The notes beneath the pieces are model-generated. The model saw only the letters and a program-made list of their open reading frames with translations, did not search any database and was not told the DNA's origin. A DNA stretch of 64,000 nt from Methanobacteriota archaeon (GTDB lineage: Archaea; Thermoplasmatota; Thermoplasmata; RBG-16-68-12; JAJISG01), in the NCBI GenBank assembly GCA_030594205.1, contig JAUVFR010000001.1:156252-220251 (forward strand), given 5' to 3'. This document shows, piece by piece, positions 8,121 through 62,048 of this stretch; position 1 is the first letter of the stretch; each line of letters opens with the position of its first letter. The translations under genes and the position numbers were made by a program.

Positions 8121-8258
8121 GAGTCTGAATGCCCTCGGGGGCTACTTGAACCCGAAAGAAAGATTCTTCCTGAAGACAGGAGTCGCCTCGAGGTCGCACG
8201 GGCAGCTTCATAGGCGACCGGCCTCGCTTGAGTCGAGAGAGCGGGAGACCATCCTACA

Positions 8259-8651: not shown

Positions 8652-8717
8652 GCCCGTGCGGCTTTGAGAGACTCATATAGGACCAGGCACCTTCGAAGTC
8701 CGGCCGAGAGGCTTGGC

Positions 8718-9104: not shown

Positions 9105-9113
9105 GGGAGCCGG

Positions 9114-9710
9114 ATGGCGGAGACATTCCCCGGAGACGACCTGACCCGATGCGACTGGGGCTTCCAGGAACCCCTCATGCTGGCCTACCATGACGAGGAG
9201 TGGGGGGTTCCTCTCCACGACGACCAAGCTCTTTACGAGCTGCTGGTGCTCGAGGGAATGCAGGCAGGGCTGAGCTGGATGACGGTCCTCCGGAAGCGCG
9301 CAAACTTTCGGGAGGCCATGGATGGCTTCGACCCCTCGCTGGTGGCTCGCTACAGCGAAGGGAAGATGAAGCGGCTCCTGGGTGACGCCGGTATCATCCG
9401 GAATCGCATGAAACTCGAGGCGGCCATCAACAACGCTCAGAGGTTTCCGGAGGTCCAGGAGGAGTCCGGCTCCTTCGACGCCTACCTCTGGCGTTTCGTC
9501 GGAGGCCGCCCGAAGGTGAACCGGTTCGCCACTCTCGCGGAGCTTCCGCCGGAGACCGATGAGTCGCGGGCCATGAGCCAGGATCTCCGACAACGGGGCT
9601 TCAGGTTCGTGGGTCCGACCATCTGCTACGCCTATATGCAGGGTGCAGGCCTGGTCAACGACCACACGACGGATTGCTTCCGACATGCGGAGCTCATCGG
9701 TGCGCGATAA
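9114..9710 (+). CDS. tag: DNA-3-methyladenine glycosylase I
   Basis: 198 aa. CDWGFQEPLMLAYHDEEWGVPLHDDQALYELLVLEGMQAGLSWMTVLRKR...GPTICYAYMQGAGLVNDHTTDCFRH is the Tag signature including Zn-binding C/H residues. Confidence 0.85.
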   Translation: MAETFPGDDLTRCDWGFQEPLMLAYHDEEWGVPLHDDQALYELLVLEGMQAGLSWMTVLRKRANFREAMDGFDPSLVARYSEGKMKRLLGDAGIIRNRMKLEAAINNAQRFPEVQEESGSFDAYLWRFVGGRPKVNRFATLAELPPETDESRAMSQDLRQRGFRFVGPTICYAYMQGAGLVNDHTTDCFRHAELIGAR

Positions 9711-9754
9711 TCCGCGGGCCCCTCCTTTTTAGGGACTTCTTGTTTGGTCGTAAG

Positions 9755-44278: not shown

Positions 44279-44352
44279 GCCGTTGTGGCTCAGCCTGGTA
44301 GAGCGACGCCTTGGTAAGGCGTAGGTCCCGGGTTCAAATCCCGGCAACGGCT
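44279..44352 (+). tRNA. tRNA-Thr (anticodon GGU)
   Basis: GCCGTTGTGGCTCAGCCTGGTAGAGCGACGCCTTGGTAAGGCGTAGGTCCCGGGTTCAAATCCCGGCAACGGCT. The acceptor GCCGTTG/CAACGGC pairs, the anticodon loop is TTGGTAA, and a TATA-like aaagctatat lies about 30 nt upstream. Confidence 0.85.
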
Positions 44353-44381
44353 CTATAACTAAGGGTCGCGGCTCCGTCAAA

Positions 44382-46142
44382 TTATGGATCAGACATGGGC
44401 TCGGCGGGCCCGTCCCTCCTGACGAGAGGAAGCTCCACTCGGCTCGGATGCTCCACATCGTGGTGGAGGATCACGTGGGCGGTCCGCGCGTCCCTTGCCG
44501 ATTCCTCGGCAACGACGCCCCCGCTGTTGTAGTTCTTCTGGACAAAGATGGAATTGGGCGAGCGGAGGAGGAGGCGTAGGCGACTGCCCCGGGCCACCTG
44601 TCGGGAGAAGAAGGTGAACCCGTCGAACACGTACTCGTGGGCCTCTCCAGGCGTGGCCAGCCTCTCCTGCGTGAGGGACTCGCGATAACGGGCCCGGAGG
44701 AGGTCCCGACTCAGGAAGACATGGGAGCCATCAGGGAGGAGTTCGGAGACGGTCACCACGAAATCGGTATCCGGCACGTCGAGGGTGATCCACGCCACAA
44801 GACGCAGGAAGCCCGTGACCTCTGTGTCCTCGGGGAACGGGGAACTATGATACACGAGACCGTTTCCGTACAGGCGGAGGGCGTAGCGCTGGTCTGTGAG
44901 GTAGTTCTTGACGAGTTTCTTCTCTAGCTCCGCGGGCCGGAGATCCAGGGGGTCGTACACGTACGCATCAGGCTCGGAGTCCTTCGGCGGGGCATCCTGC
45001 AGGGTGCCAGAGTGAAAGATGTCGTTCGCGCGACCGTCCCGGGAGTTCAGATAGAGCCTCTCCCGGCCGTCGGCGTTGGCCTCCAGGGCATCTGCGTACT
45101 TCCACTCTTCCGCACCCATCACGAAGTAGGCCACGCGCTTCTTCAGGAACTCGGGCTTGGAGCCGCCCTTCAGGGTCCAGTCGTACCACTCTCGGTGCAG
45201 CTCGTTCAGGTCGATCACGCTGACCTCGTCGAACTTCAGGCCCCCAACCTCCCTGTTCGGCGTCCGCGTGCCGGCGTGGTCCCAGGGGCCGATGACCAGG
45301 TGGTGTTTCGCCGTCGCCTCGGGCGTCCCGTGTTGCATGTGCATGCGGTAGTAGTGCAAGGCCCCGGGCTGGTCGCCGTCGTAGTGGCCGGTGATGGTCA
45401 GAATCGGGATGGCGATGCGCCGATACTCGTCCGGCGTCAACGCCATGGGCTCCCAGTACGGGTCCGGCGTCGGATGTTGGATCCATGTCTGAAAGAGGGT
45501 GGAGAGGTTGCCGACGACTTGGTCTAGGTCCTTGAACGGCCGGTGATGCAGGTACAGTTCGCGGAACTTCTCGATCCAGAAGGCATCCTCGCCGAAGAGG
45601 GCGGAGTTTGCCGTCAACCCGCTGGTTAGGGTGAGCCACCGCATCTCGTAGGGAAACAGGATGTTCTTGAAGAACGGGAAGTCCACGGCCGCGTGGGCCG
45701 CGGCCGCCGGCACGATGGCCTTCAGGTGGGGAGGGAACTCCTTCAGCGTGGTCCACTGGTTGAAGCCGGAGTAGGAGCCGCCCCACATTGTGACCGAGCC
45801 GTCGCACCAGGGTTGCGTCGCCAGCCACTCCACCACGTCGTGGCCATCCCGGCCCTCGTTCACGAAGGGCTCGAACTCTCCCTCGGAGTTGCCCCGACCC
45901 CGGCAGTCCACGACGAGGAAGGCGTCGCCGTGCTGCGCAAAGTTGTACGCCCGCTCGTGGTAGGTGTCCGCTGTGTAGGGGGTGAGGGTAAAGATGGCCG
46001 GAGTGGGCGTCTCCTCCTTGGGGCGATAGAGGGTGGCGTTGAGGCGGACGCTATCCCGGAGCGGAATCTGAACGCCCCAGCTGAAGTCCACCTCCCCCTC
46101 GGGGCCTTGTTTCGAGGCCCCCTTTCCCGATTCTTGTCTCAT
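44382..46142 (-). CDS. CocE/NonD-family alpha/beta hydrolase (S15 X-Pro dipeptidyl-peptidase-like)
   Basis: 586 aa. The nucleophile elbow MWGGSYSGF and an N-terminal alpha/beta-hydrolase region plus C-terminal beta-sandwich-like region are typical of the family. Confidence 0.8.
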   Translation of the reverse strand: MRQESGKGASKQGPEGEVDFSWGVQIPLRDSVRLNATLYRPKEETPTPAIFTLTPYTADTYHERAYNFAQHGDAFLVVDCRGRGNSEGEFEPFVNEGRDGHDVVEWLATQPWCDGSVTMWGGSYSGFNQWTTLKEFPPHLKAIVPAAAAHAAVDFPFFKNILFPYEMRWLTLTSGLTANSALFGEDAFWIEKFRELYLHHRPFKDLDQVVGNLSTLFQTWIQHPTPDPYWEPMALTPDEYRRIAIPILTITGHYDGDQPGALHYYRMHMQHGTPEATAKHHLVIGPWDHAGTRTPNREVGGLKFDEVSVIDLNELHREWYDWTLKGGSKPEFLKKRVAYFVMGAEEWKYADALEANADGRERLYLNSRDGRANDIFHSGTLQDAPPKDSEPDAYVYDPLDLRPAELEKKLVKNYLTDQRYALRLYGNGLVYHSSPFPEDTEVTGFLRLVAWITLDVPDTDFVVTVSELLPDGSHVFLSRDLLRARYRESLTQERLATPGEAHEYVFDGFTFFSRQVARGSRLRLLLRSPNSIFVQKNYNSGGVVAEESARDARTAHVILHHDVEHPSRVELPLVRRDGPAEPMSDP

Positions 46143-46149
46143 AGGGGAG

Positions 46150-46196
46150 CCCGAGAGGTAGCGGGATACAAACCTTTTCTCTGACTCCCGGCAACG
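46150..46196 (+). repeat. Direct repeat copy 1 (47 nt), ending in a core shared with the 3' end of tRNA-Thr
   Basis: cccgagaggtAgcgggatacaaaccttttctctGactcccggcaacg matches copy 2 at 52684 in 45/47 positions. The terminal actcccggcaacg matches the tRNA-Thr 3' end atcccggcaacgg. It ends 8 nt upstream of the hydrolase start codon. Confidence 0.75.
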
Positions 46197-46282
46197 CTCC
46201 TGTTAAGGGGTTCAGAGATCACAAGGCCTGTAAGGCTTGAGAAACGTTATCTAAGCTCAATCGGGTTAACCTCTGGGAACAC

Positions 46283-46705
46283 GTGACAGTCAGGGACCTC
46301 ACCGTCAAGGAACGCATCCTCCTCCACCTCTTCGACTTCAACCGTTTCGCCGAGGAATACGAGGCGCCTATCGAGGTTACGCAGAGCGGTATCGCGGAGG
46401 CCACAGGCATTCGGATTCAGCATGTGACGCAATACGTCAAACCGCTCCTTGAGGAAGGACGCGTGGAGGGCAGGATCTCACATATCAGCCAGAGGCCACG
46501 GCGCCGTAAGGTGTACTTTCTCACTGCCCAGGGGAAACATAATGCGGCTACTTTGCGGAACTCCCTCTTCAAGGAGAAGGTTCCACTCCGAACCCGGAGT
46601 GGGTTGATCCAGGAGTTTCCGCTCTCGAGAGTCTACCAGGCCGACCGTCGCGGGACACGTCTCCCCGAGCTACTGGATGAACTTCGCTCGACGGGATTCA
46701 TTTGA
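46283..46705 (+). CDS. Winged-helix (MarR/TrmB-like) DNA-binding protein
   Basis: 140 aa from GTG. LTVKERILLHL...EVTQSGIAEATGIRIQHVTQYVKPLLEEGRVEGRIS. The gene sits in a visibly lower-GC stretch. Confidence 0.55.
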   Translation: MTVRDLTVKERILLHLFDFNRFAEEYEAPIEVTQSGIAEATGIRIQHVTQYVKPLLEEGRVEGRISHISQRPRRRKVYFLTAQGKHNAATLRNSLFKEKVPLRTRSGLIQEFPLSRVYQADRRGTRLPELLDELRSTGFI

Positions 46706-46789
46706 ACTTCGAGGTCAGATTGGTGGGGCTCGAGAGGGAGGAACAGGGTCAACATCTCCGTGGGTGGCCACGCGCTGTGAGGAAGGCCC

Positions 46790-47539
46790 TCAGCCGCTCC
46801 CTTCAATGTGCGTCTGAATCTGAGGGCCCACGGACCTCCTAGCCCAGCTCAGGTCCTCCGGTGTGTCGACCTCTATCCAGGGACGTCCCTGGATGGACGA
46901 GGCCATCGCAGGACGGCCCGCGCGAGCCATCTGGGCGAAGGCCTCCTCGTAGTAGATGCGCGGTCCCTGCTGCCTGAGAGCCTCCCTCAGGCTGTCGTAG
47001 AAGCCGGCGGAATCCCTCACATGGGCAACCCCGATGTACTCCCCATCGGCCTCTGAGGGCTCCAGCTCCTTGCTTATGCGTACCACGCATCCATCCTCGA
47101 TGACGACCTTCATCTCCTCTCGGCCCAGCTCCTTCTCCGTGTCCACGGCCAGGACAGCGCTCTCGTCCCCGCTCCGAGTCACGTCCTCGGCGATCTCCGG
47201 GTGGAAGAGAGTGTCGCCGTTCACCAGCAGGAAGCTATGGCCCTCGACCCGCTCCCTGGCAAGGTACACGCTGTAGGCGTTCTCCGTCACCTTCGACCTG
47301 GGGTTCCTCACGTAGGCCACGTCGAAGCTCCACTCCTGGGCGGCGCCAATGTGATTCCGCAGGACCTCCTCCTTGTAGCCGACCACCAGGACCACCTCCT
47401 CCACATCCACCACCTTGCAGGCATGGCCGATATAGTCCAGGATGGTCCTGTCGCCGACCTCCAAGAGGGCCTTCGGCCTGTCCCGGCCCAGCTCCCCCAT
47501 GCGCCTCCCGCTCCCGGCCGTCAGGATCAGGGCCCTCAT
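46790..47539 (-). CDS. Sugar/polyol-phosphate nucleotidyltransferase (MobA-like NTP-transferase fold), a candidate CTP:inositol-1-phosphate cytidylyltransferase (IPCT-like)
   Basis: 249 aa. MRALILTAGSGRRMGELGRDRPKALLEVGDRTIL is an NTP-transferase glycine-rich loop. It is divergently paired (44-bp spacer) with a CDP-alcohol phosphatidyltransferase gene. Confidence 0.7.
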   Translation of the reverse strand: MRALILTAGSGRRMGELGRDRPKALLEVGDRTILDYIGHACKVVDVEEVVLVVGYKEEVLRNHIGAAQEWSFDVAYVRNPRSKVTENAYSVYLARERVEGHSFLLVNGDTLFHPEIAEDVTRSGDESAVLAVDTEKELGREEMKVVIEDGCVVRISKELEPSEADGEYIGVAHVRDSAGFYDSLREALRQQGPRIYYEEAFAQMARAGRPAMASSIQGRPWIEVDTPEDLSWARRSVGPQIQTHIEGSG

Positions 47540-47583
47540 TGCTCTCCCCCGGGGGCCCTATGCCGCAACCATAAAAAGTATTT

Positions 47584-48213
47584 TTGACTCTGGGTCGGAG
47601 GCACGGAGGGAGAGCCTTGGAATGGAAGTACCCCCTGACCACCTACGTATATCGTCGCCTCTCGAGGCCCCTGGCCGCCCGCCTGGCCAGGACCAGAATC
47701 ACGCCCAACCAGGTGACCTGGATCGGCGGCACCGTCGGCATGGCCGGGGCCGTCCTCGTGGCCCTGCAGCAGTTCTACCTGGCGGTCGCCCTGCTGTTCA
47801 TCTCCGGTATCCTTGACTGTACCGACGGCGACCTGGCCAGGGCCAAGGACCAGGTGACGCGCTACGGCGCCTACCTGGACCACATGATGGACCGGTGGGT
47901 AGACGGCGCCCTCGTCGTTGCCCTGGTCCTCACCAACTTCGAGAACCTCTGGCTGGTGGGGCTCCTGGCGATGATGGGCACCTACATGGCCACGGCCCCC
48001 AGGACCAAGGCGGAGGCTGAGGGTGTATCCTGCCTGGTGGGCCTGGCGACCAGGGACCTGCGCATGCTCATCTGGTGGGTGGGCCTCCTCCTGCTCCAGC
48101 CCTACTCGCTGCTCCTCCTCCTGGCCCTCTTGGGGCTCATCACCTCCATCCACAGGACCCACCACTCCCTGGGCCAGCTGCGGACCGCCGAGGCGGAAGG
48201 CGGGGCCGCCTAG
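47584..48213 (+). CDS. CDP-alcohol phosphatidyltransferase family protein, a candidate di-myo-inositol-phosphate-phosphate synthase (DIPPS-like)
   Basis: 209 aa. DCTDGDLARAKDQVTRYGAYLDHMMDRWVD fits D-G-x2-A-R-x8-G-x3-D-x3-D. 5-6 TM helices. Confidence 0.75.
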   Translation: MTLGRRHGGRALEWKYPLTTYVYRRLSRPLAARLARTRITPNQVTWIGGTVGMAGAVLVALQQFYLAVALLFISGILDCTDGDLARAKDQVTRYGAYLDHMMDRWVDGALVVALVLTNFENLWLVGLLAMMGTYMATAPRTKAEAEGVSCLVGLATRDLRMLIWWVGLLLLQPYSLLLLLALLGLITSIHRTHHSLGQLRTAEAEGGAA

Positions 48214-48955
48214 GCATCACCTGAGGAATGCCGCGATGCCATCGATGCCATGGCCAGCCAGCCAGGAATAATCGCAGCAGAAACGACGCTGTTGAACGCC
48301 AGAAGAGGTGTCCCTCGCGCAGCCGTCCGACGCCTTGCTATGTCTGGGGACGGCCTTCAACTACCTCCACGCGGCGGAGGATTGGCAGCGCGCCCTTCGA
48401 CGATTTCGGGATCACCTCCACGCCCTCGGTCCACCTCCCTCGATTGCGGGGGTTGGGATAGGGAAATCTACCCCTTGAGGCCAAACCGGTCCCGAGCGGA
48501 CTCCATAGGAGATCGCCATTGGATAGATGAAATCCCCAGCCGGACAACGCGCAGAGGGTATCGGACGCCCGGCGACGGCCGTAAGCCTCCTTCCATGCAT
48601 TTCCGCCTCCTTTGTGGTGCATGCGTCATGAACTTCGCTTACGGCCCATGCATTCTTATTCGATGACCGAACGTCCGTAGCTTTACTAACAACCTTACGA
48701 CACTTTTCACGCCTGGCGAAGTCCACAAAATGCCAGTTTTGAAGGTCTTTGGTATTCCAACCGCGCATTGGGGCGTCCGAAAGAGCATCAACCCCGCCAT
48801 TTCACTCACGGTGAACGCCCGAGAGCGCGGGCGTCCCCTTCGTCCCCCTGCGCGCGTGGGGGGTCCGGTGGATGCGGCGAGGCTCTTCAGGTGCCTCGCG
48901 TTTCGGCTCGAGGACACTAATCCGGTTCCCGCAGCCACTTGCTTACGTCGAGGAA

Positions 48956-48993
48956 AGCAGGCTACGAACCTTTTCTTCGACTCCCGGCAACGG
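48956..48993 (+). repeat. Direct repeat copy 3 (degenerate, about 33/38 identity to copies 1 and 2), with the tRNA-Thr 3'-end core
   Basis: agcaggctacgaaccttttcttcgactcccggcaacgg. It lies in about 950 bp of non-coding, lower-GC DNA. Confidence 0.65.
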
Positions 48994-49166
48994 AGCCTCC
49001 GAGCGGACTCCCAAGAATCGGGAGAACGGAAAATCTCCCGGCCCTACCCAGACCCTTCCTAGTCACTTGCTTAGTCTATAGTTTAATTGGTCCAAATGGT
49101 CCAAGTGGCTGCAATGCCAGACTCCAATTCCGGTGTGTCCGATTGCCGAGCGTAGAACAGGACAGC

Positions 49167-52100
49167 CTATCCCGGGGTTCGTCCGAGCAGTTCTTCCACG
49201 ACAGTCTCCAATTCGAGTCTCTCGGCCCGTTCCCGAGCCGCTTTATACGCCTTGGACGGAAGTTGGTCTTCGAGCTTCCTGAGAAGACTGCTCGCCTCTT
49301 CCTCGATAGCCCGCCGGCGAAGGGTCGAATACTGTCTGCTGGCTGGATGACGGAGGACAAGGCTCAGGAGCTCGACGGCCCGGTCCTCCTCCTGATTTGA
49401 GGCCTTCACCTTGGCCAAATCATACAGCGTTCCCACGATCTCTCGAGTCTGCCCAATCTCCTCAGAGATTGCCAGGCTGGTCAAGTAGTGCTTCTCGGCC
49501 TCCTGGATCTCGCCGCCTTGCAGGGCGACGCTCCCAAGGTTGTTCTGAAACAACTGTCTCCCGCGTTGGAATCCGATCTCCTCCACGTTCCTCAGACCGC
49601 GCTCGTAGGTGGCCCGGGCCTTTGGAAGGTCCCCGGTTGTGACCGCCAAGGCCCCTAGACCCACGAGAGGCCAGGTCTGTCCCACGCGGTCGCCCTGCTC
49701 TTCGAACATGGCGAGGCTCTGGTTCCCCAACCGGGCAGCCTTCTCCAAGTCCCCACTTTGGAACGCACCAAAGAAGAGCCAGGCCATCGAATAGGCTTCC
49801 ATCAATGCGTCTCCCAACTCCCGGGCAATCTCAAGCGCCTCCCCCGCGGCTGCCTCGACCTCCGCTTGCCGATTGAGAAACGCACCGTTTAGGGCGAGGC
49901 AGAAAAGCGGAATGAGCCGTTCCTGTCGGCGATCCATCTTCCGGAGGGTGTCCACGGCCTCTTCGGCGAGTCGTAGTCCCTCCTCCGGGGAACCCAGAAG
50001 GCTGGTAAAGTAACCCTGGATAGCTGTGACCCTCGCTTCCACAACGACGGATTCGGGGTCTTCTGGCTTGCCCTGAAGCGCCTCAGCCGCCGCCGCCAGG
50101 AGCTCGACAGCTTCGTGGTGCCAGCCGTGAAGGTCGTAGACGTGAAGAAAGCCGTTGAGAAATCGGGAGAGGCCACCGGGGTCCTTTCTTCCGACCCAGT
50201 AGCGCCAGGCGGCCCGAATGTTGACGATGTCGTCTTTGATCTCCCGATGGGCGGCCAGCTGCCGCTGGCCCTGAAGGTCGTCCAATCGGTTCTCCACGAA
50301 TCCTGCAAAGTAGGTCCCGTGGGCCTGATCGGCTGTCGCCCTTGCAGCCTCATCGCTCCCGAGCTTCTCCTCCGCGTATTGCCTCACCCCCTCGTGGATC
50401 CAGAAACGACCCGTGTCGGGGTCCCGATGCAGCAAGGACTTTCGTTCCAGGGCCACGAGGTCGCGGACGGAGGCGGTTGCAACCTCCTCCCCCGCCTGGC
50501 GGGTGAAGCCGCCCTGGAAGACGGAGAGCGCCCGTAGGAGGTCCTGGTCCGCGGGCGTGAGGAGGGACCATGAGGCCTCAAAGGCAGCCCGAAGGCTTTG
50601 CTGGCGGCGGGGCAGGTCCGGTGCCTCGGACTGGAGGAAGTCGAGGCTGGTTTCGATCTCCTTTGCGATTTCCGCAAGAGACAGGACGTCTACCCAGGCT
50701 GCCGCGAGGAGAATGCCCAGGGGGTTGCCCTCGACGGAGCGGAGGATCCCGCGGAGATTGGGGAGGTCGTCCTCCTGTAGCGCGAACCCAGGTTCCACAT
50801 TCTCCGCCCGCTGAAGGAACAGCTGCACTGCGCTGGACCCGAGCGCCTCCTCCGAGCGCTCCCATTCCCCGACCGCGAGCCCAGACAGAGGTCGGACCCG
50901 CTCCGCCTGGAGATTAAGCCTCTCTCTGGAGGTAACGAGGAGAGCGACTCTTGGGGCGGTCTCCAGGATCCGCTGGACAAAGTCCGCCCCGTCGAGGAGG
51001 TGTTCGAAGTTATCCATCACGAGGAGCAGCCGTCGCCGTTGCAGGTGGTTCAGAATCTGAATGTCCGGGTCCTCCTCCGTGGATAGGGGAAAGCCTAGCG
51101 CCTCGGCGACCGCCTGCGGAATCCCCTCGGGGGACGCAACAGGGGCCAAGGACACGATGAAGACGCCGTCGGCGAAGGAACGCAGCAGTCGATAGGCCAC
51201 CCTAAGAGCGACGCGGGTCTTGCCGATGCCGCCTGGACCCACGAGACTGACCAGGCGGGACTCGAGATTCTCGAAGGCCGTCACTACTTCCTTTAGCTCC
51301 TCCTCTCGACCGACGACGGGGGCGACCTCCGCAGGCAGGTTGTGGACCGGATCCCTCTGAGGACGAACGGCCAATGGCCCTGCCCCTCTCCCCTCAGTGA
51401 GCGAGAGCGCAGTGGCCTCCGTGGGAAGCGGGATCTCGAATCGTGCGAAGTAGCGTCGAAGGTGGGCCGCCGCGTGTATGAGGGCGGCCAGGCGCTCCCG
51501 GTCCGCCAGGGCCTTCTTGTTGCAGAAGTTCAGGCCGACCGCCGTGGCCGCGAGGAGGAATTGGCCCCAGAGATCGTCGGTCAGGCTCGGATGGGTCTTG
51601 TCCACCCAACCCTGAAAGGCCCGTCGAACGACGATCGAGATGGAGGCCGCCCCTGCCAGTTCGATGGGGACCTCGTCGGCATCCAGGAGGTCGCCCCGCG
51701 CAAACCCGGCCGCGAAGCTTGCCCATTTGGGCAACGACACCTGAGGGAGAAGGTGGAGCAGATGGGAGAGCTCGAGGTATGCGTGGTCGTAGAGGAGGGG
51801 GGATTGCTGCTTGTAGAGGGCGAAGTCGATTAGATAATACCCGTCGAGTTTGTTCTCTTGGGGCGAGAATTTTGCCAGGATGTTCCCCGTGTTGAGGTCG
51901 CCATGCTGAAAACCCAGAATGGAATCGATGGGTCTCGTGTCGGACCATAGGTCCGGATCTCGGGCGTAGGCCAGGGGGTTGGGGTACGCGACGCCCTCGA
52001 GGAGAAGTCCGGGGGTCTCGGGCCGAACCCGACATACGTCTTGGAGAAACGTCTCGATCCGGCCCCCTTCCTCGAGTCGGTAGCCCAGCCAACGAGTCAG

Positions 52101-52595
52101 GAGGTCGCGGGGATGAGTCGCCCTTTCGAAGGACGCGCCTTCATTCCACTCGCCGAGTAGTCCCCCCATGACTGTCTGGGCGATGGTTGCGAATTGACCC
52201 CGGGAGCGGAAGGCCGAGAGGGGACGGTAACTCTGCAGAGATTCGCCTGCGATGGTGTAGAAGATGACCACTGAATCCCCGTATTCCACCTGTTCCATGG
52301 CGAGGTCGGGCATGTGGTCCCGCGCGAAGGGGACGGGCGCCGCCGTCCGGGCCATGCGATGGCGCTCTACCTCTCCCGGACCGTAGGGGTTCCGGCGATC
52401 GAGCTTCAGGATCAGGTGTTCCAATCGAGGCGCGTTCGCGCGCGAAGCGCTTGCGAGATAGAGATAGGCGCCCGATCGACCCCCTCCCAATCGAGAGAGG
52501 GGTGTCACCCTCAGGCCATGTCGGGCCAGGGCCTCGCGAAGCGCTTCCTGAAGGTGTTCGGGAAGCTCCTCGAACTCAGGGGCAAGCTCTGGCAT
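49167..52595 (-). CDS. Multidomain signalling ATPase: N-terminal protein-kinase-like/APH-like domain, central STAND (NB-ARC-type) NTPase, C-terminal TPR repeats
   Basis: 1142 aa. Kinase-like features: G-loop LGGGRSGAYLY, VAIK-like HLILKLD, catalytic-loop-like HGDLNTGNILAKF and DFG-like YLIDFALY. STAND features: Walker A LVGPGGIGKTRVALRVA, Walker B RRLLLVMDNFEHLL. The C-terminal ~450 aa are helical TPR-like repeats. Confidence 0.85.
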   Translation of the reverse strand: MPELAPEFEELPEHLQEALREALARHGLRVTPLSRLGGGRSGAYLYLASASRANAPRLEHLILKLDRRNPYGPGEVERHRMARTAAPVPFARDHMPDLAMEQVEYGDSVVIFYTIAGESLQSYRPLSAFRSRGQFATIAQTVMGGLLGEWNEGASFERATHPRDLLTRWLGYRLEEGGRIETFLQDVCRVRPETPGLLLEGVAYPNPLAYARDPDLWSDTRPIDSILGFQHGDLNTGNILAKFSPQENKLDGYYLIDFALYKQQSPLLYDHAYLELSHLLHLLPQVSLPKWASFAAGFARGDLLDADEVPIELAGAASISIVVRRAFQGWVDKTHPSLTDDLWGQFLLAATAVGLNFCNKKALADRERLAALIHAAAHLRRYFARFEIPLPTEATALSLTEGRGAGPLAVRPQRDPVHNLPAEVAPVVGREEELKEVVTAFENLESRLVSLVGPGGIGKTRVALRVAYRLLRSFADGVFIVSLAPVASPEGIPQAVAEALGFPLSTEEDPDIQILNHLQRRRLLLVMDNFEHLLDGADFVQRILETAPRVALLVTSRERLNLQAERVRPLSGLAVGEWERSEEALGSSAVQLFLQRAENVEPGFALQEDDLPNLRGILRSVEGNPLGILLAAAWVDVLSLAEIAKEIETSLDFLQSEAPDLPRRQQSLRAAFEASWSLLTPADQDLLRALSVFQGGFTRQAGEEVATASVRDLVALERKSLLHRDPDTGRFWIHEGVRQYAEEKLGSDEAARATADQAHGTYFAGFVENRLDDLQGQRQLAAHREIKDDIVNIRAAWRYWVGRKDPGGLSRFLNGFLHVYDLHGWHHEAVELLAAAAEALQGKPEDPESVVVEARVTAIQGYFTSLLGSPEEGLRLAEEAVDTLRKMDRRQERLIPLFCLALNGAFLNRQAEVEAAAGEALEIARELGDALMEAYSMAWLFFGAFQSGDLEKAARLGNQSLAMFEEQGDRVGQTWPLVGLGALAVTTGDLPKARATYERGLRNVEEIGFQRGRQLFQNNLGSVALQGGEIQEAEKHYLTSLAISEEIGQTREIVGTLYDLAKVKASNQEEDRAVELLSLVLRHPASRQYSTLRRRAIEEEASSLLRKLEDQLPSKAYKAARERAERLELETVVEELLGRTPG

Positions 52596-52683
52596 GTTAC
52601 AGCTTCCGGGCCTCCCGGGGCGGTGGTTAGCCAGTGGATTTCCCGTCGAGCTTCACGGGCTTCTCCGCGCCCCGAGACAGGCT

Positions 52684-52731
52684 CCCGAGAGGTGGCGGGA
52701 TACAAACCTTTTCTCTAACTCCCGGCAACGG
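52684..52731 (+). repeat. Direct repeat copy 2 (48 nt), longest match to the tRNA-Thr 3' end
   Basis: cccgagaggtGgcgggatacaaaccttttctctAactcccggcaacgg. Its 3' tcccggcaacggct is a 14-nt exact match to tRNA-Thr 44339-44352. It lies 89-136 nt upstream of the STAND gene start. Confidence 0.75.
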
Positions 52732-54594: not shown

Positions 54595-54673
54595 GTTTTC
54601 ACCCTCACTCTCTTCCCATTAGGGGGATGGTGCATGGGCCATCTCCTTCATCACTTTTATCGCCCCGACCCGC

Positions 54674-55246
54674 TTGTGGAAGTTCATGGACCCGGAGCGC
54701 AGGGACAGGAGGCCCCCGCGATTCAGTCGCATCCGCGATCTCTTGGGTCTCCTCGTCCCGCTCCTCATGCTCGTGACTGGAATCGCACTAACCATCGCCT
54801 CCTCCCTCACGGTTTCCATGTTGGTCGGGACGGAGGACTTCCAGGGGTCAGCCGAGCCCGGCGACACATCGCGGCCCCTGGCGCGCATGGATTACAGCAT
54901 CGTGGCTTTCGAGGCCGATGGACTTCCCTGCCCTCTCCTCGTCTACCCCCTCAGCCTGGGAGAGCACACAATCTACCTGGAGAGTGGCACCCTTCCTCAG
55001 GCGAGCCTGAACTGCGACCGACCGTTCCTCAACCTGACGCAACAGGTGAGCCACTTTGTCCTTCGGAACCTGGACCCCATTGACGCCCAGAACTACTCCG
55101 TGAACGCCACGTTCTTCTCTGGGTCTCGCCCCTACCTCGGTCTCGCGATTCCCGCGATCTTCTTCATCTTCGTCGGCGGGGTCTCCCTGCTCGTCCGCAT
55201 GCTCACCCGCGGCATCGAGAAGTTCATGCGAGACGCTGAGAAGTAA
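54674..55246 (+). CDS. Hypothetical bitopic membrane/surface protein (N- and C-terminal TM helices; N-x-S/T sequons in the central domain)
   Basis: 190 aa. TM1 LLGLLVPLLMLVTGIALTIASSL, TM2 LGLAIPAIFFIFVGGVSLLV. Central-domain sequons NLT, NYS and NAT. Confidence 0.45.
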   Translation: MWKFMDPERRDRRPPRFSRIRDLLGLLVPLLMLVTGIALTIASSLTVSMLVGTEDFQGSAEPGDTSRPLARMDYSIVAFEADGLPCPLLVYPLSLGEHTIYLESGTLPQASLNCDRPFLNLTQQVSHFVLRNLDPIDAQNYSVNATFFSGSRPYLGLAIPAIFFIFVGGVSLLVRMLTRGIEKFMRDAEK

Positions 55247-55318
55247 AGAAAACAAAAGAAAGGGGAGGGGTGGGCGCCCGAAGGCGCGCCCCTCGAGAGT
55301 TGTGTTGGCTTGGTAGCT

Positions 55319-57985
55319 CTACGTCCCGCCTTTTCGTCCCCACACGACAGCGAAGGCGATGGCGACGACCGCGACCACCACGGCCACGATGGCCACGATG
55401 AGCACGGTGTTCGCGAGGCTCGTTGCCGCAGCCGCCGCCGCGTTCGCGGCGTCAGCTGCTTCCACAGCCACGTCGAGTTCTGTCTGGAAGGCGTTGAGCG
55501 CATCGTCAATGACGACCGTGAGGTCGGCGATGATGGCGCTGCTCAGACTGAGGCTGGTGAACGACTGGACGTTCACGACAGGAAGCGCTGCTTCCTCGCC
55601 CACGACGATGGTCTGCAGGTCGTACGTACCCGCCACGAGGGCCGTCGTCTGGTCGGCCGTGAGCGTAATGTCCCACTGGCCGGGCCCGGTGCGGACCGCG
55701 TCACCGCTGAAGAGAATGTTCTTCGTGGTCGGGTCCAGGAGGAGCCAGGCCGAGGTGGCAATCCGGTCGTACGGCACGCCCTCAAGGCTGGTCGCGAACT
55801 CGAAGGTGGCTGGGAAGGTCTGGATGACTGCGGGCGGCGTTCCGAGGACGACGTCGGGCACGCGGATCGTTCCGAGGAAGTCCCACGCGTCCTGCTCGAT
55901 CGGGTAGCCCGTGCGATGGGCCGTGTACAGGGCACCCTCTGGTGCCGTGAAGTACTGGTCGAGGTAGTACGGTCCTTGGCTGACGTAGTAGTTGCAGGTC
56001 CAGATGGATGGGCCGTTCACGCAGGCGGGGTTCACCCGGTTCCGCCACTCGTCCAGGGCCGTCCACCGGGCATCGGCCGCGGCGGTGTCGACGGCGACCT
56101 GGGCTGCGAGTGCCGGATCCAGGTTTCCCGCGAGCAGGAACGCCGGGATCATGCTGTTCGCCAGGTTGTCCGCAAGCCGCGGGTCGAAGAAGGTAAGGGT
56201 GGCTCCCTTGGCCAGGTCCAACTCCACCTGGTTCAACAGGCCGGCAGACGTGTCGTCGAAGGCGACTTCCGCGTTGCTGAGGACCGACTCCGTCATGATC
56301 TGGTTGAGCTCCCACGGGTACCACGGGAAGATGGGAATCCGTCCCGCGATGAGCGTTTCGTCTGGGTTGTACGTGTCGTAGTACATGCGGATGGTGTCGG
56401 CGTCAAGGACCTCGAATCCCTTGAACGAGGAGTCCCACCGAGTGAGGTAGATCTGGGCTGCGTTGTTCGGGTTCTGGATAGCGAGGTCTCCGGACGCCAT
56501 TCGTGACATCATGGCGATTTGCGCGACGACGTCGGTCATCGTGATCGCCTCGCCATGGTGGAACTCTCCGAAGAGCATGTCGAAGTCCACGTAGGCCCCG
56601 GTAGTCAGGCCCGCCGTCACGTTCTCGAACAAGTTCGAGGACACGTTGAACGCCTGGGCCGAGGTCGGGACGTCGTGTGTGCCCAGCGGTCCCACGTTGT
56701 TGATGGTGAACGGGGTACGCACCGGAATGGTGAGCCCGGTGTGGGGGTGGCTGTAGGTCCCGAAGTCCTGTATGGTAACCTGCGCGTACACGGAGTACAC
56801 ATCCTGGTGGCCCCCGTAGGCGTTCCAACCGGAACCCGTGTGGACCGGCTGCGCGATGTTCAGGGTGCCGCCGGCGACGCCGTTTTTCATCGTCGTTCGT
56901 AGGGCGAACGGCTGCAGGTTCCCTGCGAAGATGCCGAAGGCCGTGTTGCTGAGTACGTCGTTGTATGCGTACACGTCTGTCTGCGCCGTGACGAAGCTAC
57001 GGATGCCATCCTTCATGCCCAGTGACGTGCAGGCCCGCTGGAGATCGCGGCGCTCGTCGAGGGTCGTGTAGAGACCATCATTCAGGGTCTCGCAGGCGAT
57101 GGAGAGGGAGGCCGGTGGAGTGTAGTCATCCCACAGTGCACTCCCGAAGTCACCGTTGTAGAAGTAGTTCGTCTGGGTGTCCTCGAACTGGACGAATCCA
57201 GAGGATCCCCAACCTTCGGTGTACATGTTCCACTGGCCGAGCTTCGCATCGTTGAAGTAGACCTTGTCGAGTGCCTCGGAGAATGTCGAGGGGTCGAGCA
57301 CCGACGTGAAGCCCAACTTCGTGACTTCGGTGGCCACGTAGGCCCCGATTTCGAAGCGGGTGTCTTCGACACGCTGGACGATGATGACCTCGATGTTGGC
57401 GCCGTTCATCAGCCACTGGTTCGTGGCCGAATTGAAGGTGGCTCCGGAAACGCGGGACATGGCGTCATCGACTATGGCCTTCGCCCGCGCGGGGTCGTAG
57501 GAGTACGATGTCTCAATGCCTGCGAAGAAGGCAGCGTCCCGGACGAATTCGGGTTCTGCCTGGAAGTGGGCTGAATACATGGGAATGGCGAAGCCCCCCT
57601 CGATTTCGGTGGCGATGAAATCCCTGTCGTACGCCCAGTGCATGGCCTCACGAATCTCGCGGATAGTGAACGGGTTGAAGTCACCGCTAGACGGTGCTAC
57701 CGGGTTGACCTGCATGCCACGGAACCCGGAGAAGGCTTGCTTGACATTGATGTTCGGATCGTCCCGGGCCGCCACCTTGTCTGTGGCGGCATCCAACGAG
57801 AAGATATACATGTCGATATCTCCGGCCGAGAGGGCTGCGATGGACTGGTCCTGTGGTAGGACTGAGAAGACCATCGAGTCCACGTAGCCGCCGAAAACTT
57901 GGGCGGCGGCATGTCTAGGAAGGGCGAATGCTCCGACCGTCAGTAGCAATGCTGCTACTGCTATCACCACAATTGCTCTTTTCAA
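55319..57985 (-). CDS. ABC transporter substrate-binding protein, family 5 (oligopeptide/dipeptide type), large archaeal form with C-terminal TM anchor
   Basis: 888 aa. Signal peptide MKRAIVVIAVAALLLTVGAFALPRHAAAQ. C-terminal hydrophobic anchor LIVAIVAVVVAVVAIAFAVVWGRKGGT preceded by an A-rich linker. The body has periplasmic-binding-protein fold cluster C features. Confidence 0.8.
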   Translation of the reverse strand: MKRAIVVIAVAALLLTVGAFALPRHAAAQVFGGYVDSMVFSVLPQDQSIAALSAGDIDMYIFSLDAATDKVAARDDPNINVKQAFSGFRGMQVNPVAPSSGDFNPFTIREIREAMHWAYDRDFIATEIEGGFAIPMYSAHFQAEPEFVRDAAFFAGIETSYSYDPARAKAIVDDAMSRVSGATFNSATNQWLMNGANIEVIIVQRVEDTRFEIGAYVATEVTKLGFTSVLDPSTFSEALDKVYFNDAKLGQWNMYTEGWGSSGFVQFEDTQTNYFYNGDFGSALWDDYTPPASLSIACETLNDGLYTTLDERRDLQRACTSLGMKDGIRSFVTAQTDVYAYNDVLSNTAFGIFAGNLQPFALRTTMKNGVAGGTLNIAQPVHTGSGWNAYGGHQDVYSVYAQVTIQDFGTYSHPHTGLTIPVRTPFTINNVGPLGTHDVPTSAQAFNVSSNLFENVTAGLTTGAYVDFDMLFGEFHHGEAITMTDVVAQIAMMSRMASGDLAIQNPNNAAQIYLTRWDSSFKGFEVLDADTIRMYYDTYNPDETLIAGRIPIFPWYPWELNQIMTESVLSNAEVAFDDTSAGLLNQVELDLAKGATLTFFDPRLADNLANSMIPAFLLAGNLDPALAAQVAVDTAAADARWTALDEWRNRVNPACVNGPSIWTCNYYVSQGPYYLDQYFTAPEGALYTAHRTGYPIEQDAWDFLGTIRVPDVVLGTPPAVIQTFPATFEFATSLEGVPYDRIATSAWLLLDPTTKNILFSGDAVRTGPGQWDITLTADQTTALVAGTYDLQTIVVGEEAALPVVNVQSFTSLSLSSAIIADLTVVIDDALNAFQTELDVAVEAADAANAAAAAATSLANTVLIVAIVAVVVAVVAIAFAVVWGRKGGT

Positions 57986-58242
57986 CTTTCTTTCCTCCTC
58001 TTGCTCCCCCGATCAACTATGGAACAGGCGCTCTTGAGGTTCAAAGCCTCCAACCAGACCTCTCTATTTAACGCTTTCCTGGGCCAGAGGTCCAGAGTAT
58101 GGGCCCTCCAGTCAGTCGGCTGAGCGGCGATCGTTCGCCCCGACCCTCGGGTTCACACACCGAACAGACCACCGTCATCTTGCACTGCGCACAAAAGGTT
58201 TAGGAGGCCTGGCTTCCTCATTTCCGCCGGAGATTCAGAGAA

Positions 58243-59811
58243 GTGGCATCCAAGATTCGTGTGTTCCGAACCAGGGGCGGCACCCACCGCTTCTCCGCTC
58301 AGGAGCGAAGCGGCCCACTGTTTCGAACGACCGTCCTCGCACTCCTCTTGCTGTTGACCGTCCTAACGTGGTATCCCGCCACGACCGAGGGCCAGGGAGT
58401 CGGTCGGTTCTGGGCAAGGGAAACGGTGGAGGCGGGGACGCCCTCCGGCCTCCATACGAGCGTCGTCCTGGGGCCCACGGGCGCGCCACACATCACCTAC
58501 ATCGATCGAGGATCGGATGCGGTGAAATATGCGGTACTTCGCCCTGGAGGCTGGGACATCGAAGTAGTCGACATCAATGGGGGTTTCACGGGGGGCACGA
58601 GTCTCGTTCTTGACGCCACGGGTCGTCCTCACGTCAGCTACTTCAACGGCCGGGCGGGAATGGTCGTGTACGCGGTCCGAAACGAGTCCGCTTGGCAGCG
58701 CACGCCGGTCGACCGGGGGTCCTTCCTGGGACCAAACAGCCTCGCCGTGGATTCGTCCGGCCTCGTCCATCTGGCGTACGCCTTTCCCAACGCGAAGCTT
58801 CAGTACGCGTCCTGGGATGGGGCCCGCTGGACCATCGAGCAGGTCGATACAAGAAGAATCGCCGTGCACTACCTCTCTCTGGCCCTCGACAGCGACGATC
58901 GGCCCCACATCGCGTACTACGGCAACGCCAGTCTGAACTACGCATCCTGGAGCGGGCAGGCTTGGACGCTAGAGACGGTCGACGCGTCCGGCAATACCGG
59001 TCTGTACGCCAGTCTGGCCCTTGATGTGGACGATGTCGCCCACGTAGCGTATCGGGACTTCGTCACGCGGGACCTGCGTTACGCTCGCCTGGCCAATGGT
59101 TCCTGGCAGCTCGAGACCGTGGACTCGGCCGGTGACGCAGGCTGGTTCGCGAGCATCGCTGTGGACGAGGAGAACGTCGTCCACATGGCCTACTATGAGC
59201 GCATCCGCTCCGAGCTCCGCCACGCGCGTCGACAGTCCACCGCGTGGTTTGTGGAGCAGGTCGACTCGGAAGGCGTCGTGGGCTGGGACACATCCCTCGC
59301 CGTGGATTCCCAAGGGGATCCCCACATCAGCTACTACGACTGGAGTCGCGGCAGTCTGCGGTACGCTAGGGGCATGCTGCGGTTAGCCGTCCGTACGCTC
59401 ACAGCTCCACAGGTCGCTCCGACCGAGGCCCTGCTACGAGGAGAGCTGGTTTCCCTTGGCGGGTTTGAGAACGCGCAGGTCTCGTTCCAGTGGAGGCCGA
59501 AGGGGGCGGCCTATTGGAATTCGACACCCGCCGAGGCGAGGAACGCGGAAGGTGTCTACGAGGCGGTCCTGACGGGTCTTGATCCCGATCGGGGTTACGA
59601 GTTCCGCGCGGCGGCGGACATGCAAGGGTTTCTCGAGGTGGGTGAAACGCTCACCTTCACAACGCCTACTGTGGTGGATGAGCAAGCAGTCCGTGCCTTC
59701 TACCAGGGCACCCTCATCGCTATTGCGGGACTCTCCGGCGTGCTCCTCCTATGGCTCCTCTTCGTCATCAGGCGAGGGATGCGAGAGCGGCGGCGTGAGA
59801 AGGGCCTGTGA
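58243..59811 (+). CDS. Secreted/membrane-anchored beta-propeller-like repeat protein (about 7 repeats of ~45 aa) with C-terminal TM anchor
   Basis: 522 aa. Repeating unit W..E.VD..G..G...SLA.D..G.PHI.Y.......L.YA (e.g. GWDIEVVDINGGFTGGTSLVLDATGRPHVSYF; AWTLETVDASGNTGLYASLALDVDDVAHVAYR). N-terminal hydrophobic segment and C-terminal LIAIAGLSGVLLLWLLFVI. Confidence 0.6.
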   Translation: MASKIRVFRTRGGTHRFSAQERSGPLFRTTVLALLLLLTVLTWYPATTEGQGVGRFWARETVEAGTPSGLHTSVVLGPTGAPHITYIDRGSDAVKYAVLRPGGWDIEVVDINGGFTGGTSLVLDATGRPHVSYFNGRAGMVVYAVRNESAWQRTPVDRGSFLGPNSLAVDSSGLVHLAYAFPNAKLQYASWDGARWTIEQVDTRRIAVHYLSLALDSDDRPHIAYYGNASLNYASWSGQAWTLETVDASGNTGLYASLALDVDDVAHVAYRDFVTRDLRYARLANGSWQLETVDSAGDAGWFASIAVDEENVVHMAYYERIRSELRHARRQSTAWFVEQVDSEGVVGWDTSLAVDSQGDPHISYYDWSRGSLRYARGMLRLAVRTLTAPQVAPTEALLRGELVSLGGFENAQVSFQWRPKGAAYWNSTPAEARNAEGVYEAVLTGLDPDRGYEFRAAADMQGFLEVGETLTFTTPTVVDEQAVRAFYQGTLIAIAGLSGVLLLWLLFVIRRGMRERRREKGL

Positions 59812-59838
59812 AGGCGTCTCGCCTTTCGGGGTGCCCCC

Positions 59839-60816
59839 TCACTCCGCTAGGTGGCAGGCCACGAAGTGGCCGGGCCGAAGCTCACGTAACAACGGTTCTT
59901 CCACGTCGCAGAGTCCCTCCCTGGCAATCGGACATCGAGGGTGGAAGCGGCATCCCGCCGGGGGATTGACCAGGCTCGGCGGCTCCCCCGGGAGGGCGGG
60001 TCGTTCTCGGAACCGATTCTCCGGGTCCGGGTCGGGGATGGCTTCGATCAGGGCCTGGGTATAGGGATGCAGGGGCTCCGTGAGGAGACTCTCATGGGGG
60101 CCCATCTCTACGAGCTTTCCCGCGTACATGATGCCGATGCGCTCCGCGAAGTGGTGGGCCGTGGCTAGGTCGTGGGTGATGTGCAAGAAGCCCACTCCGA
60201 GATTCTCCTGAATCTCCTTCAGGATCCGGAGGATGCTCACCTTGACCGAGGCGTCTAGCATCGAAACCGGTTCGTCGGCCACGATGAACTCCGGATCGAG
60301 GATCATGGCCCGGGCGACCACGACGCGCTGCCGTTGGCCCCCACTGAGCATGTGGGGATACTTGTGGGCGAAGAACTCCGGCGGCGTAAGGTGAACGCTA
60401 TCCAACGCCGTGAGGATCCGCTCCCACCGTTCCTGCCGGTTCCCCAAGCCGTGGATGACGAGGGGTTCCTCCAACGCCTTGTTGACGGGATAGGTCGGGT
60501 TGAGACTGGAATACGGGTCCTGCGGGATCATCTGGGCCTTGCGGCGAAGCCACTTGAGGTCCTTGTCTTTCAGGTGGGTGACGATCTTGCCAGCGAACTG
60601 GATCTCCCCATCCGTGGGTTCGAGGAGCCGGAGGATGGTCCTTCCGAGGGTGGTCTTCCCGCTCCCGCTCTCTCCGACCAACGCGAGGGTCTCTCCTCGT
60701 TGAATCACGAGGGAGACGTCGTCCACGGCGCGAACGTGGAGGGGCCTCCGAAACATGCCGCCACCGATCTCGAACCACTTCGTGAGGCCAGTGAGGCTGA
60801 CGAGAGGCTCACCCAT
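59839..60816 (-). CDS. ABC transporter ATP-binding protein (OppF/DppF-type)
   Basis: 325 aa. Walker A GESGSGKTT, signature LSGGQRQRV, Walker B ILDEP-like FIVADEP, C-terminal oligopeptide-ABC extension with CRFHPRC. Confidence 0.9.
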   Translation of the reverse strand: MGEPLVSLTGLTKWFEIGGGMFRRPLHVRAVDDVSLVIQRGETLALVGESGSGKTTLGRTILRLLEPTDGEIQFAGKIVTHLKDKDLKWLRRKAQMIPQDPYSSLNPTYPVNKALEEPLVIHGLGNRQERWERILTALDSVHLTPPEFFAHKYPHMLSGGQRQRVVVARAMILDPEFIVADEPVSMLDASVKVSILRILKEIQENLGVGFLHITHDLATAHHFAERIGIMYAGKLVEMGPHESLLTEPLHPYTQALIEAIPDPDPENRFRERPALPGEPPSLVNPPAGCRFHPRCPIAREGLCDVEEPLLRELRPGHFVACHLAE

Positions 60817-62032: not shown

Positions 62033-62048
62033 ACGAATCCTCCCCGTG

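Follow-up and report, generated by a model that had tools for sequence, protein, structure and literature searches.

A window of 64,000 nucleotides (nt) from a Thermoplasmatota metagenome-assembled genome (MAG; assembly GCA_030594205.1, contig JAUVFR010000001.1, positions 156,252 to 220,251 of the forward strand) carries on its minus strand, at 49167-52595, a complete open reading frame (ORF) that starts with ATG and encodes a protein of 1142 amino acids (aa). The protein comprises a kinase domain of the APH/choline-kinase type, which matches the Pfam family TCAD9 and is predicted to be active (residues 1-400; 51396-52595, minus strand), the P-loop NTPase core of a STAND module (residues 426-600; 50796-51320), a helical/winged-helix, ARC-like part of the same module that contains its GxP motif (residues 601-780; 50256-50795), and a region of TPR repeats, presumably the sensor (residues 781-1142; 49170-50255). 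The initial annotation of this stretch had given the order as kinase, NB-ARC-type STAND ATPase and TPR, and had proposed either a signalling protein or an Avs-like defence sensor. That order was borne out by Pfam, motif and profile matches, and every motif it had quoted was found in the translation; its TPR region of some 450 aa had to be shortened to about 300-360 aa (residues ~781-1142).

The reading frame is not a chance ORF, since a database protein labelled 'AAA family ATPase [Candidatus Thermoplasmatota archaeon]' is 99.65% identical to its product (4 residues differ) and is present on contigs of two other, independent assemblies, and since more than 1,500 homologs were recovered at E≤1e-5, many of them full length with 100% query coverage. 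A near-identical cluster representative (P0001) served as stand-in for the window protein in database comparisons. The genes around the ORF are archaeal: an NFACT protein, the large subunit of DNA primase (PriL), and archaetidylinositol-phosphate-synthase-like transferases. As the ORF is widely matched and its neighbours are archaeal, we conclude that the kinase-STAND-TPR gene genuinely resides in an archaeal chromosome and is no assembly chimera. Its product is an archaeal member of a large family that is already catalogued and known from sequence. Across 14 homologs of equal length, mean identity was highest in the kinase (48%), slightly lower in the NTPase and helical parts (46-47%) and lowest in the TPR region (34%).

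The Pfam model TCAD9 (PF19974) matched the N-terminus locally, at residues 192-293 (51.1 bits against a cutoff of 40, E 1.5e-13). The conserved unit is the entire N-terminus of ~400 residues, which shares ~45-53% identity (E ~1e-120) with relatives annotated as TCAD9, and precomputed TCAD9 annotation was found on all homologs. KINtaro lists TCAD9 among the protein-kinase-like families. The kinase motifs are a G-loop (GGGRSGA, 37-43), the beta3 Lys in I62-L-K64, the catalytic loop H231-G-D233-L-N-T-G-N238, and D257-F-A. Five residues, namely K64, the alphaC Glu E75, the catalytic Asp and Asn of HGDxxxxN (D233 and N238) and the metal-binding Asp of DFx (D257), are invariant in 52 homologs of 43-87% identity, and are also conserved in an alignment of 118 sequences. 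An AlphaFold2 model of the domain built from 52 sequences reached a mean confidence (pLDDT) of 90.2, and residues 1-400 form a bilobal kinase fold.

The nearest folds were those of small-molecule and peptide kinases, comprising antibiotic kinases (APH and the corramycin, amicoumacin, hygromycin and viomycin kinases) and sugar or metabolite kinases. Two checks that had been proposed at the outset came out in favour of a kinase: structure prediction gave a confident fold of the APH/choline-kinase type, and the catalytic Lys and Asp residues (K64, D233, D257) did not vary among the 52 homologs. The domain had been called 'eukaryotic-like/APH-like'; the second term fits, and the first was dropped in view of the nearest folds. 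Because the catalytic residues are invariant, the N-terminal domain is predicted to be an active kinase of the small-molecule or peptide type.

The central region shows the features of a STAND NTPase of the NB-ARC/AP-ATPase-like clade: Walker A (GPGGIGKT, 453-460), Walker B (LLLVMD528NFEH, from L523), sensor-1 (T555-S-R) and a GxP motif (G623-N-P-L) within the helical/winged-helix module. The columns G-x-P-L-x-I-x-L-A-A are near-invariant in the homolog alignment. Pfam matches to AAA_22, AAA_16, NB-ARC and NACHT all fell at residues 427-561; with the single sequence, AAA_22 exceeded its cutoff (31.8 bits against 27), and NB-ARC (22.1 against 23.5), NACHT (19.5 against 26.7) and AAA_16 (29.2 against 32.6) stayed just below theirs. 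The family profile was also searched against all PDB sequences. Among the best 60 of its 94 matches, by far the best solved structure was AfsR (8k60; positions 405-753, E 1.8e-33), and the plant NLRs Roq1, ADR2 and ZAR1 matched more weakly (E 1e-8 to 1e-6). The C-terminal ~360 residues matched TPR_12 (53.3 bits against a cutoff of 30.1) and TPR_2, with TPR_MalT below its cutoff (35.7 bits against 45). In the PDB search the same region matched the TPRs of LGN/Pins and a Pyrococcus STAND protein's 'tetratricopeptide repeat sensor PH0952' (6mfv, E 5e-19). For the STAND module, the resemblance to PknK- and MalT-like regulators suggested in the initial annotation was supported, this module resembling the PknK/AfsR/MalT class by its AfsR match and by the BTAD/AfsR- and PknK-annotated plasmid genes described below.

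When one genome for each of 185,579 species was scanned by pattern, the kinase domain turned up at 199 loci, of which the best 80 were examined. All 80 belonged to bacterial MAGs, mainly Anaerolineales and other Chloroflexota, with Ignavibacteria/Bacteroidota, Gemmatimonadota, Actinomycetota, Calditrichaceae, Acidobacteriota, Zixibacteria and Thermodesulfobacteriota among the others. The remark that such fusions are rarely described in archaea was therefore fair. Outside archaea, the closest protein has 46% full-length identity. A HMMER search with residues 1-400 against 1.84 billion cluster representatives returned 825 proteins at E≤1e-3 (105 at E≤1e-30), in which the kinase domain stands at either end of proteins of many lengths. 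A large sister group of ~1,325-1,335 aa (P0011-P0056 and others) carries a class III adenylate/guanylate cyclase (PF00211) between the TCAD9 kinase and STAND-TPR; by their domain assignments, these relatives have two signalling-type catalytic heads on one switch.

Since the best 80 loci are all bacterial, the most plausible origin of the archaeal copy is horizontal transfer from bacteria. Its best bacterial relatives come from several lineages (Chloroflexota, Ignavibacteria, Gemmatimonadota, Actinomycetota and Calditrichota, sharing 35-46% identity over the full length), and for this reason we name no donor. Carriage by viruses or plasmids was rejected on the searches made: 2.9 million viral contigs contained no recognisable relative, and plasmid and phage records gave no copy of the kinase domain. 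They matched the STAND-TPR part only, at 26-37% identity; on plasmids the matching genes are BTAD/AfsR- and 'pknK'-annotated ones of actinobacteria and Deinococcus.

To describe the bacterial gene context, ORFs in the 80 loci (L006-L085) were called by a simple longest-ORF method and the neighbours were clustered. One neighbour family is conserved: a gene of ~276 aa that directly follows the kinase-STAND-TPR gene in the same orientation and in many loci overlaps its stop codon by 4 nt. Profile search found this Nudix-fold partner in 46 of the 66 bacterial loci with enough downstream sequence (70%). It carries no Pfam or PADLOC annotation, apart from one of 57 members that touches Sa_NUDIX, and the core of its Nudix box, R-E-x-x-E-E, is invariant or nearly so (R128, E129, E132, E133). 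Judged from these gene neighbourhoods, the bacterial family is typically a two-gene unit of kinase-STAND-TPR protein and Nudix protein. From such a partner one would expect a nucleoside-diphosphate-type linkage in the kinase's substrate or product. No partner was found in the archaeal-type loci or at two of the closest bacterial relatives (L004 and L167), and a degraded partner downstream of the window gene was rejected, since a profile of 36 partners gave no match in six frames of the window. Literature searches on a kinase-STAND-Nudix module and on Sa_NUDIX returned nothing specific.

Two orthologs from other environmental assemblies, P0002 (contig L003) and P0241 (contig L166), are 88-90% identical in nucleotide sequence to the window gene and to each other. 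The similarity starts within ~12 nt of the start codon and stops near the stop codon; the flanks and neighbouring genes are unrelated to those of the window, and neither the repeats nor the tRNA described below are present there. As homology is confined to the ORF between unrelated flanks, the gene has been relocated as a unit. An HTH_10 gene and an IPCT/DIPPS-like gene in the flanks of L003 and L166 fit an archaeal origin of these contigs but are no proof of it. The ratio of nonsynonymous to synonymous substitution rates (dN/dS) between the window and L003 genes, which differ at 12% of nucleotides, was 0.20 overall (kinase 0.22, NTPase 0.15, TPR 0.22). All three modules are therefore under purifying selection, which argues against a decaying remnant, and the TPR value gives no sign of an arms-race sensor between the orthologs.

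In the window, the gene lies in an insertion of 8.4 kb (44354-52730) between PriL and a tRNA-Thr(GGT) gene (44279-44353, plus strand; ARAGORN, Rfam 71.2 bits), which is the integration target and left boundary of the island. Three direct repeats of 47 nt on the plus strand bound three segments: copy 1 (46150-46196) separates segments 1 and 2, copy 2 (48946-48992) separates segments 2 and 3, and copy 3 (52684-52730) forms the attR-like right boundary of segment 3 and of the island, ending in the tRNA-Thr 3′ core TCCCGGCAACGG. Segment 1 (44354-46196) carries a CocE/NonD-family hydrolase, and segment 2 (46197-48992) a small winged helix-turn-helix (wHTH)-like ORF, an NTP-transferase and a CDP-alcohol phosphatidyltransferase. 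The kinase-STAND-TPR gene is the only cargo of segment 3 (48993-52730), as had been noticed initially; no other ORF in that segment has family support, and of the 3,691 bp enclosed by copies 2 and 3 the gene takes up 3,429 bp.

Copies 1 and 3 of the repeat share 96% identity; copy 2 has 72% identity with copy 1 and keeps the 13-nt core unchanged. A search with the repeat allowing three mismatches gave 3 matches where 0 were expected. The 3′ end of the tRNA-Thr gene, AATCCCGGCAACG, is the core common to the three repeats. All copies end in ACTCCCGGCAACG, which differs from the tRNA 3′ end at one position; with the tRNA copy, this core occurs four times in the window against 0.2 expected by chance. 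Base composition is not deviant, with a GC content of 0.60-0.65 in the island and 0.57-0.67 across the window.

A search of metagenome contigs based on PriL yielded relatives with ~70% identical PriL. In contig L091 the site is uninterrupted, NFACT (3-419, minus strand), tRNA-Thr (510-587, plus) and PriL (795-1772, plus) following one another with a gap of 207 nt between tRNA and PriL, and L093 is arranged similarly, the three genes directly adjoining. In the window, 176 nt separate repeat copy 3 from PriL, which roughly matches the position of the tRNA end in L091. Five further contigs (L086-L090) have the same tRNA 3′ core, TCCCGGCAACGGCT, upstream of PriL, and its left arm there is non-tRNA sequence similar to the left arm of the window repeats (...AAACCTTT...). 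One of these, L089, holds ~8.8 kb of other cargo at the NFACT/PriL site (1851-9805). The empty site, the alternative cargo and the recurring cores in relatives identify the locus as a tRNA-Thr integration hot spot with three tandem att-bounded segments. The island location given in the initial annotation is therefore sound, both the empty NFACT-tRNA-Thr-PriL site in L091 and L093 and the tRNA 3′ end in the repeats bearing it out. Its further statement that defence or addiction modules typically reside in such a place found no confirmation, because the other cargo (CocE/NonD hydrolase, NTP-transferase, CDP-alcohol phosphatidyltransferase) is metabolic.

Several features of the hot spot in relatives are worth recording. 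The cargo of L089 includes a 976-aa wHTH-STAND-TPR protein whose NTPase is 25% identical to that of the window protein, a heliorhodopsin (E 9e-86) and a PKD/Ig-domain protein; ARAGORN found no tRNA on this contig, yet the tRNA 3′ core is present at 8026-8036. In L090 (63-73 and 826-836), L086, L087 and L088, one or two additional tRNA-Thr 3′ cores upstream of PriL enclose 0.6-2 kb, and these intervals resemble short cassettes, or emptied ones, in that hot spot. Two contigs, L001 and L002, are 96-97% identical in nucleotide sequence to the window from 46201 (or 48574) to exactly 54595, the end of a CDP-alcohol transferase gene adjoining PriL; L001 itself ends at window position 46201, by repeat copy 1. 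From 54596 to 62348 their gene order is kept (SBP_bac_5, BNR protein, ABC ATPases) at an identity of only 66-73%. So sharp a mosaic boundary at 54595 suggests recent recombination or transfer, either of the block of island and PriL or of the peptide-transporter operon.

On its minus strand the repeat includes a sequence resembling an archaeal B recognition element (BRE) and TATA box, GAAAAGGTTTGTAT. The ATG of the CocE/NonD hydrolase (46142) follows it at ~30 nt in copy 1, an arrangement that would give a leaderless transcript; in copy 3 the ATG of the STAND gene follows it at ~110 nt. The att-like repeat may thus double as an outward promoter for cargo. A view of the repeats as mere minus-strand promoters was rejected: 89 nt separate copy 3 from the STAND ATG, and copy 2 stands ahead of no supported gene. 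Repeats with the tRNA core also recur upstream of PriL in relatives, and the att-site reading is therefore preferred.

Within segment 2, two ORFs of 209 codons overlap on opposite strands, at 47536-48165 (minus) and 47584-48213 (plus). The former has no family match and was rejected as spurious, long antisense ORFs arising readily in a genome of 63% GC; the latter is the real CDP-alcohol transferase and is archaetidylinositol-phosphate-synthase-like (E 2e-37). Together with the divergent NTP-transferase (46790-47539, minus) it resembles the two halves of a bifunctional IPCT/DIPPS. In L166 a fused IPCT/DIPPS-like gene (6560-7879, minus), 33-35% identical to the window pair, lies 1.7 kb from the STAND-gene ortholog; this co-location, seen in two cases, may be coincidence or a hint at the class of kinase substrate. 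No supported gene occupies the ~730-780 nt at 48214-48945, where neither Pfam nor PHROGs matched any of the small ORFs and where the depositors of L001 annotated no gene. A perfect 7-bp hairpin (CGGGAGA-N8-TCTCCCG, 49019-49040) stands ~130 nt past the STAND stop codon, between the stop and repeat copy 2.

We regard it as somewhat probable that the protein is a signalling switch of the bacterial STAND type whose output is the kinase. STAND proteins such as AfsR, MalT, PH0952 and the NLRs are ligand-gated switches. By analogy with them, the TPR array would hold the NB-ARC-type NTPase off until a ligand binds; binding would then lead to nucleotide exchange and oligomerisation, by which the N-terminal kinase domains would be clustered, released or activated. 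The kinase would phosphorylate a small molecule or peptide and would not act as a Hanks protein kinase. In most bacterial relatives, a co-transcribed, divergent Nudix hydrolase would act on the kinase's substrate or product, degrading or resetting it. The Thermoplasmatota MAG would have taken up the gene horizontally; today the gene forms a one-gene cassette between att-like repeats at the tRNA-Thr hot spot and stays under purifying selection. We infer that its role lies in regulatory or stress signalling in preference to immunity. The 149 neighbours of bacterial homologs are, by Pfam content, of housekeeping or regulatory kinds, and comprise response regulators, cyclases, methyltransferases, acetyltransferases, PPK2, and redox and other metabolic enzymes.

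Several points weigh against the signalling switch. Its tripartite layout is equally that of antiviral STANDs, so that architecture alone cannot separate signalling from immunity. TCAD9 is named after conflict systems, the vWA-MoxR-VMAP 'ternary' systems (Kaur et al. 2020, PMC7159879), and a survey shows TCAD9 in CARF/SAVED-linked proteins at type III CRISPR loci (PMC10910872). Mobility as a single cassette and a patchy distribution are typical of accessory and defence genes alike. No integrase, recombinase, transposase or virus-like protein was found among the ORFs of 44354-52730 (Pfam, PHROGs, all small ORFs), which leaves the movement of the cassette without an explanation. As the Nudix partner is absent from archaeal copies, the archaeal mechanism may differ from that of the bacterial two-gene form. 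Finally, the neighbour survey was informal, being based on 149 proteins, simple ORF calls and PADLOC 2023 models with no formal enrichment test; because of this, we call signalling no more than somewhat probable and keep defence as unlikely rather than negligible.

Among the other explanations, the one with most in its favour is an Avs-like antiviral or anti-invader sensor, in which the TPR region would sense a viral protein, the STAND module would oligomerise and the kinase would act as an abortive-infection effector on an essential metabolite, nucleotide or protein, with the bacterial Nudix protein as co-effector or resetting antidote. Its effector-NTPase-sensor layout is that of Avs proteins (PMC13581612), TCAD9 is a catalogued conflict-system domain reported at CRISPR-linked CARF/SAVED loci, and Kaur et al. 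mention rare active APH-type kinases among vWA-MoxR-VMAP effectors (PMC7159879), although equating these with TCAD9 is a step of our own. The gene is moreover a single mobile cassette in a variable tRNA-linked island, with close orthologs in unrelated contexts, and the pairing of kinase and Nudix protein resembles toxin/reset logic. Nevertheless, PADLOC found no Avs, NLR or other defence model in the window protein, only generic TPR (E 1.9e-7) and mad8 (E 0.0018) matches; the NTPase is closest to the regulator AfsR, with no Avs structure among the best 60 of 94 PDB matches; and the informal survey of 149 neighbours revealed no clustering of defence genes, its PADLOC matches being scattered and generic (mad2 four times, one Cas4-like, others). 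An association with vWA-MoxR-VMAP systems was discarded, as none of these genes stands beside the window gene or among the 25 commonest families of the 149 neighbours, families that likewise include no integrases or transposases. The other island cargo is not defence-related, the sensor domain shows no sign of diversifying selection between the orthologs (dN/dS 0.22), and the effector is the most conserved domain and constant in all relatives found, whereas Avs7 is reported to have at least 20 different N-terminal effectors (PMC13581612). Without significant PADLOC matches, clustered defence genes or viral copies, the Avs-like half of the initial proposal fared worse than its signalling half, and defence is in our view unlikely. 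A more elaborate form of it is quite improbable: a STAND-gated kinase/Nudix conflict module in which the TPR region detects an invader, the NB-ARC module oligomerises, the kinase phosphorylates a nucleotide-like metabolite as arrest or signal and the Nudix protein resets the system. The archaeal copies would then be the first kinase-effector Avs-like sensors in archaea, single-gene cassettes inserted in tandem at tRNA-Thr by an integrase encoded elsewhere, in the manner of cis-mobilizable elements (CIMEs).

The nearest folds of the kinase, which include antibiotic kinases, are also what a regulated detoxification or metabolite kinase would lead one to expect. It would act on an antibiotic, a compatible-solute precursor or an inositol derivative, STAND-TPR restricting its activity to the right conditions; consistent with this, two of the three archaeal contexts have inositol-phosphate cytidylyltransferase/CDP-alcohol transferase-like genes less than 2 kb away, 33-35% identical to each other. 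However, this co-location with inositol-lipid or solute genes amounts to two cases and the bacterial Nudix partner is left unexplained. Resistance kinases are normally stand-alone enzymes, and we know of no STAND-gated one as precedent. We rate this explanation as more improbable still. The absence of the partner from the window (six frames) and from all archaeal-type loci, when 70% of informative bacterial loci have it, could alternatively mean that the gene is a hitch-hiking remnant, left over from a bacterial two-gene module after loss of the Nudix gene, without an archaeal role and decaying; the 730-780 nt of apparently non-coding DNA near the gene would agree with that. Against such decay, the ORF is full length with intact motifs, all three domains are constrained (dN/dS 0.20) between orthologs 12% apart in nucleotides, and 30% of informative bacterial loci, including the closest relatives L004 and L167, also do without the partner. 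A remnant is accordingly the least credible of these possibilities, and we consider it very improbable indeed.

Innate immune receptors and many bacterial regulators are commonly built on STAND NTPases with enzymatic heads. The locus shows that a large, catalogued bacterial family of this build (APH-like kinase, NB-ARC and TPR, in most cases accompanied by a Nudix gene) has reached archaea, where selection maintains the copy and where it travels in a cassette of one gene at a tRNA hot spot. The initial interpretation is thus partly supported, being right in half: the protein is a STAND switch with a kinase head predicted to be active, horizontally acquired and rare in archaea, and nothing found links it to defence in particular. 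The most useful new lead is the kinase-Nudix pairing, which offers a biochemical handle on family function through a nucleoside-diphosphate-linked substrate. If the signalling switch is correct, the gene is an ordinary accessory regulator; a defence function would mean new effector chemistry for antiviral STANDs and a rare archaeal example. The finding would matter considerably more if the family turned out to act in immunity through a kinase effector, or if the integrase-less cassette array at tRNA-Thr turned out to be actively mobile.

Comparison with known systems places both the island and the protein. Like tRNA-linked islands and integrase-less, CIME-like cassettes, the island is tRNA-adjacent, is bounded by direct repeats with a tRNA 3′ end, consists of tandem segments and has an empty site and alternative cargo in relatives; it differs in that no integrase or recombinase lies in or beside it, only 13 of the 47 nt of the repeat match the tRNA, and its GC content is not deviant. 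With the TCAD9 proteins of vWA-MoxR-VMAP systems the window protein shares the Pfam model, matched above its gathering score at residues 192-293, but no vWA, MoxR or VMAP genes adjoin it and its TCAD9 domain is fused to NB-ARC-type STAND and TPR. Avs and bacterial NLR-like proteins have the same succession of N-terminal enzyme, central STAND NTPase and C-terminal TPR-like repeats, and the same patchy, horizontally mobile distribution; the window protein differs from them in matching no PADLOC model, in having no defence neighbourhood and in its kinase effector. No experimentally shown kinase-type Avs effector was found in the literature.

The kinase domain itself has the bilobal fold of APH/choline-kinase-like enzymes (LxmK, APH, methylthioribose kinase, NahK, choline kinase) and, like them, combines a G-rich loop, beta3 Lys, alphaC Glu, HGDxxxxN and DF(A/G) Asp for catalysis, at a sequence identity of only 9-19% and without an assignable substrate pocket; the enzymes in the structures matched have no fused STAND NTPase. 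Actinobacterial PknK has the same order of N-terminal kinase, P-loop STAND NTPase and TPR region, which in the window protein may be MalT-like, and the STAND-TPR part is 26-29% identical to 'protein kinase' or 'pknK' genes on Rhodococcus plasmids. The outputs of PknK, MalT and AfsR (Hanks Ser/Thr kinase, LuxR HTH, SARP) are nevertheless unlike the APH-type kinase of the window protein, in which a Pfam scan detected no HTH, SARP or other DNA-binding domain. The closest likeness among solved structures is to AfsR, the Streptomyces SARP-family regulator (8k60, 8jke), and to related BTAD-NB-ARC-TPR regulators: both have an NB-ARC NTPase with a helical/winged-helix part followed by TPR, and a partial NCBIfam AfsR match and the matching BTAD-annotated plasmid genes extend the resemblance. 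Where AfsR delivers its output through a SARP/BTAD DNA-binding domain, the window protein carries an APH-type kinase.

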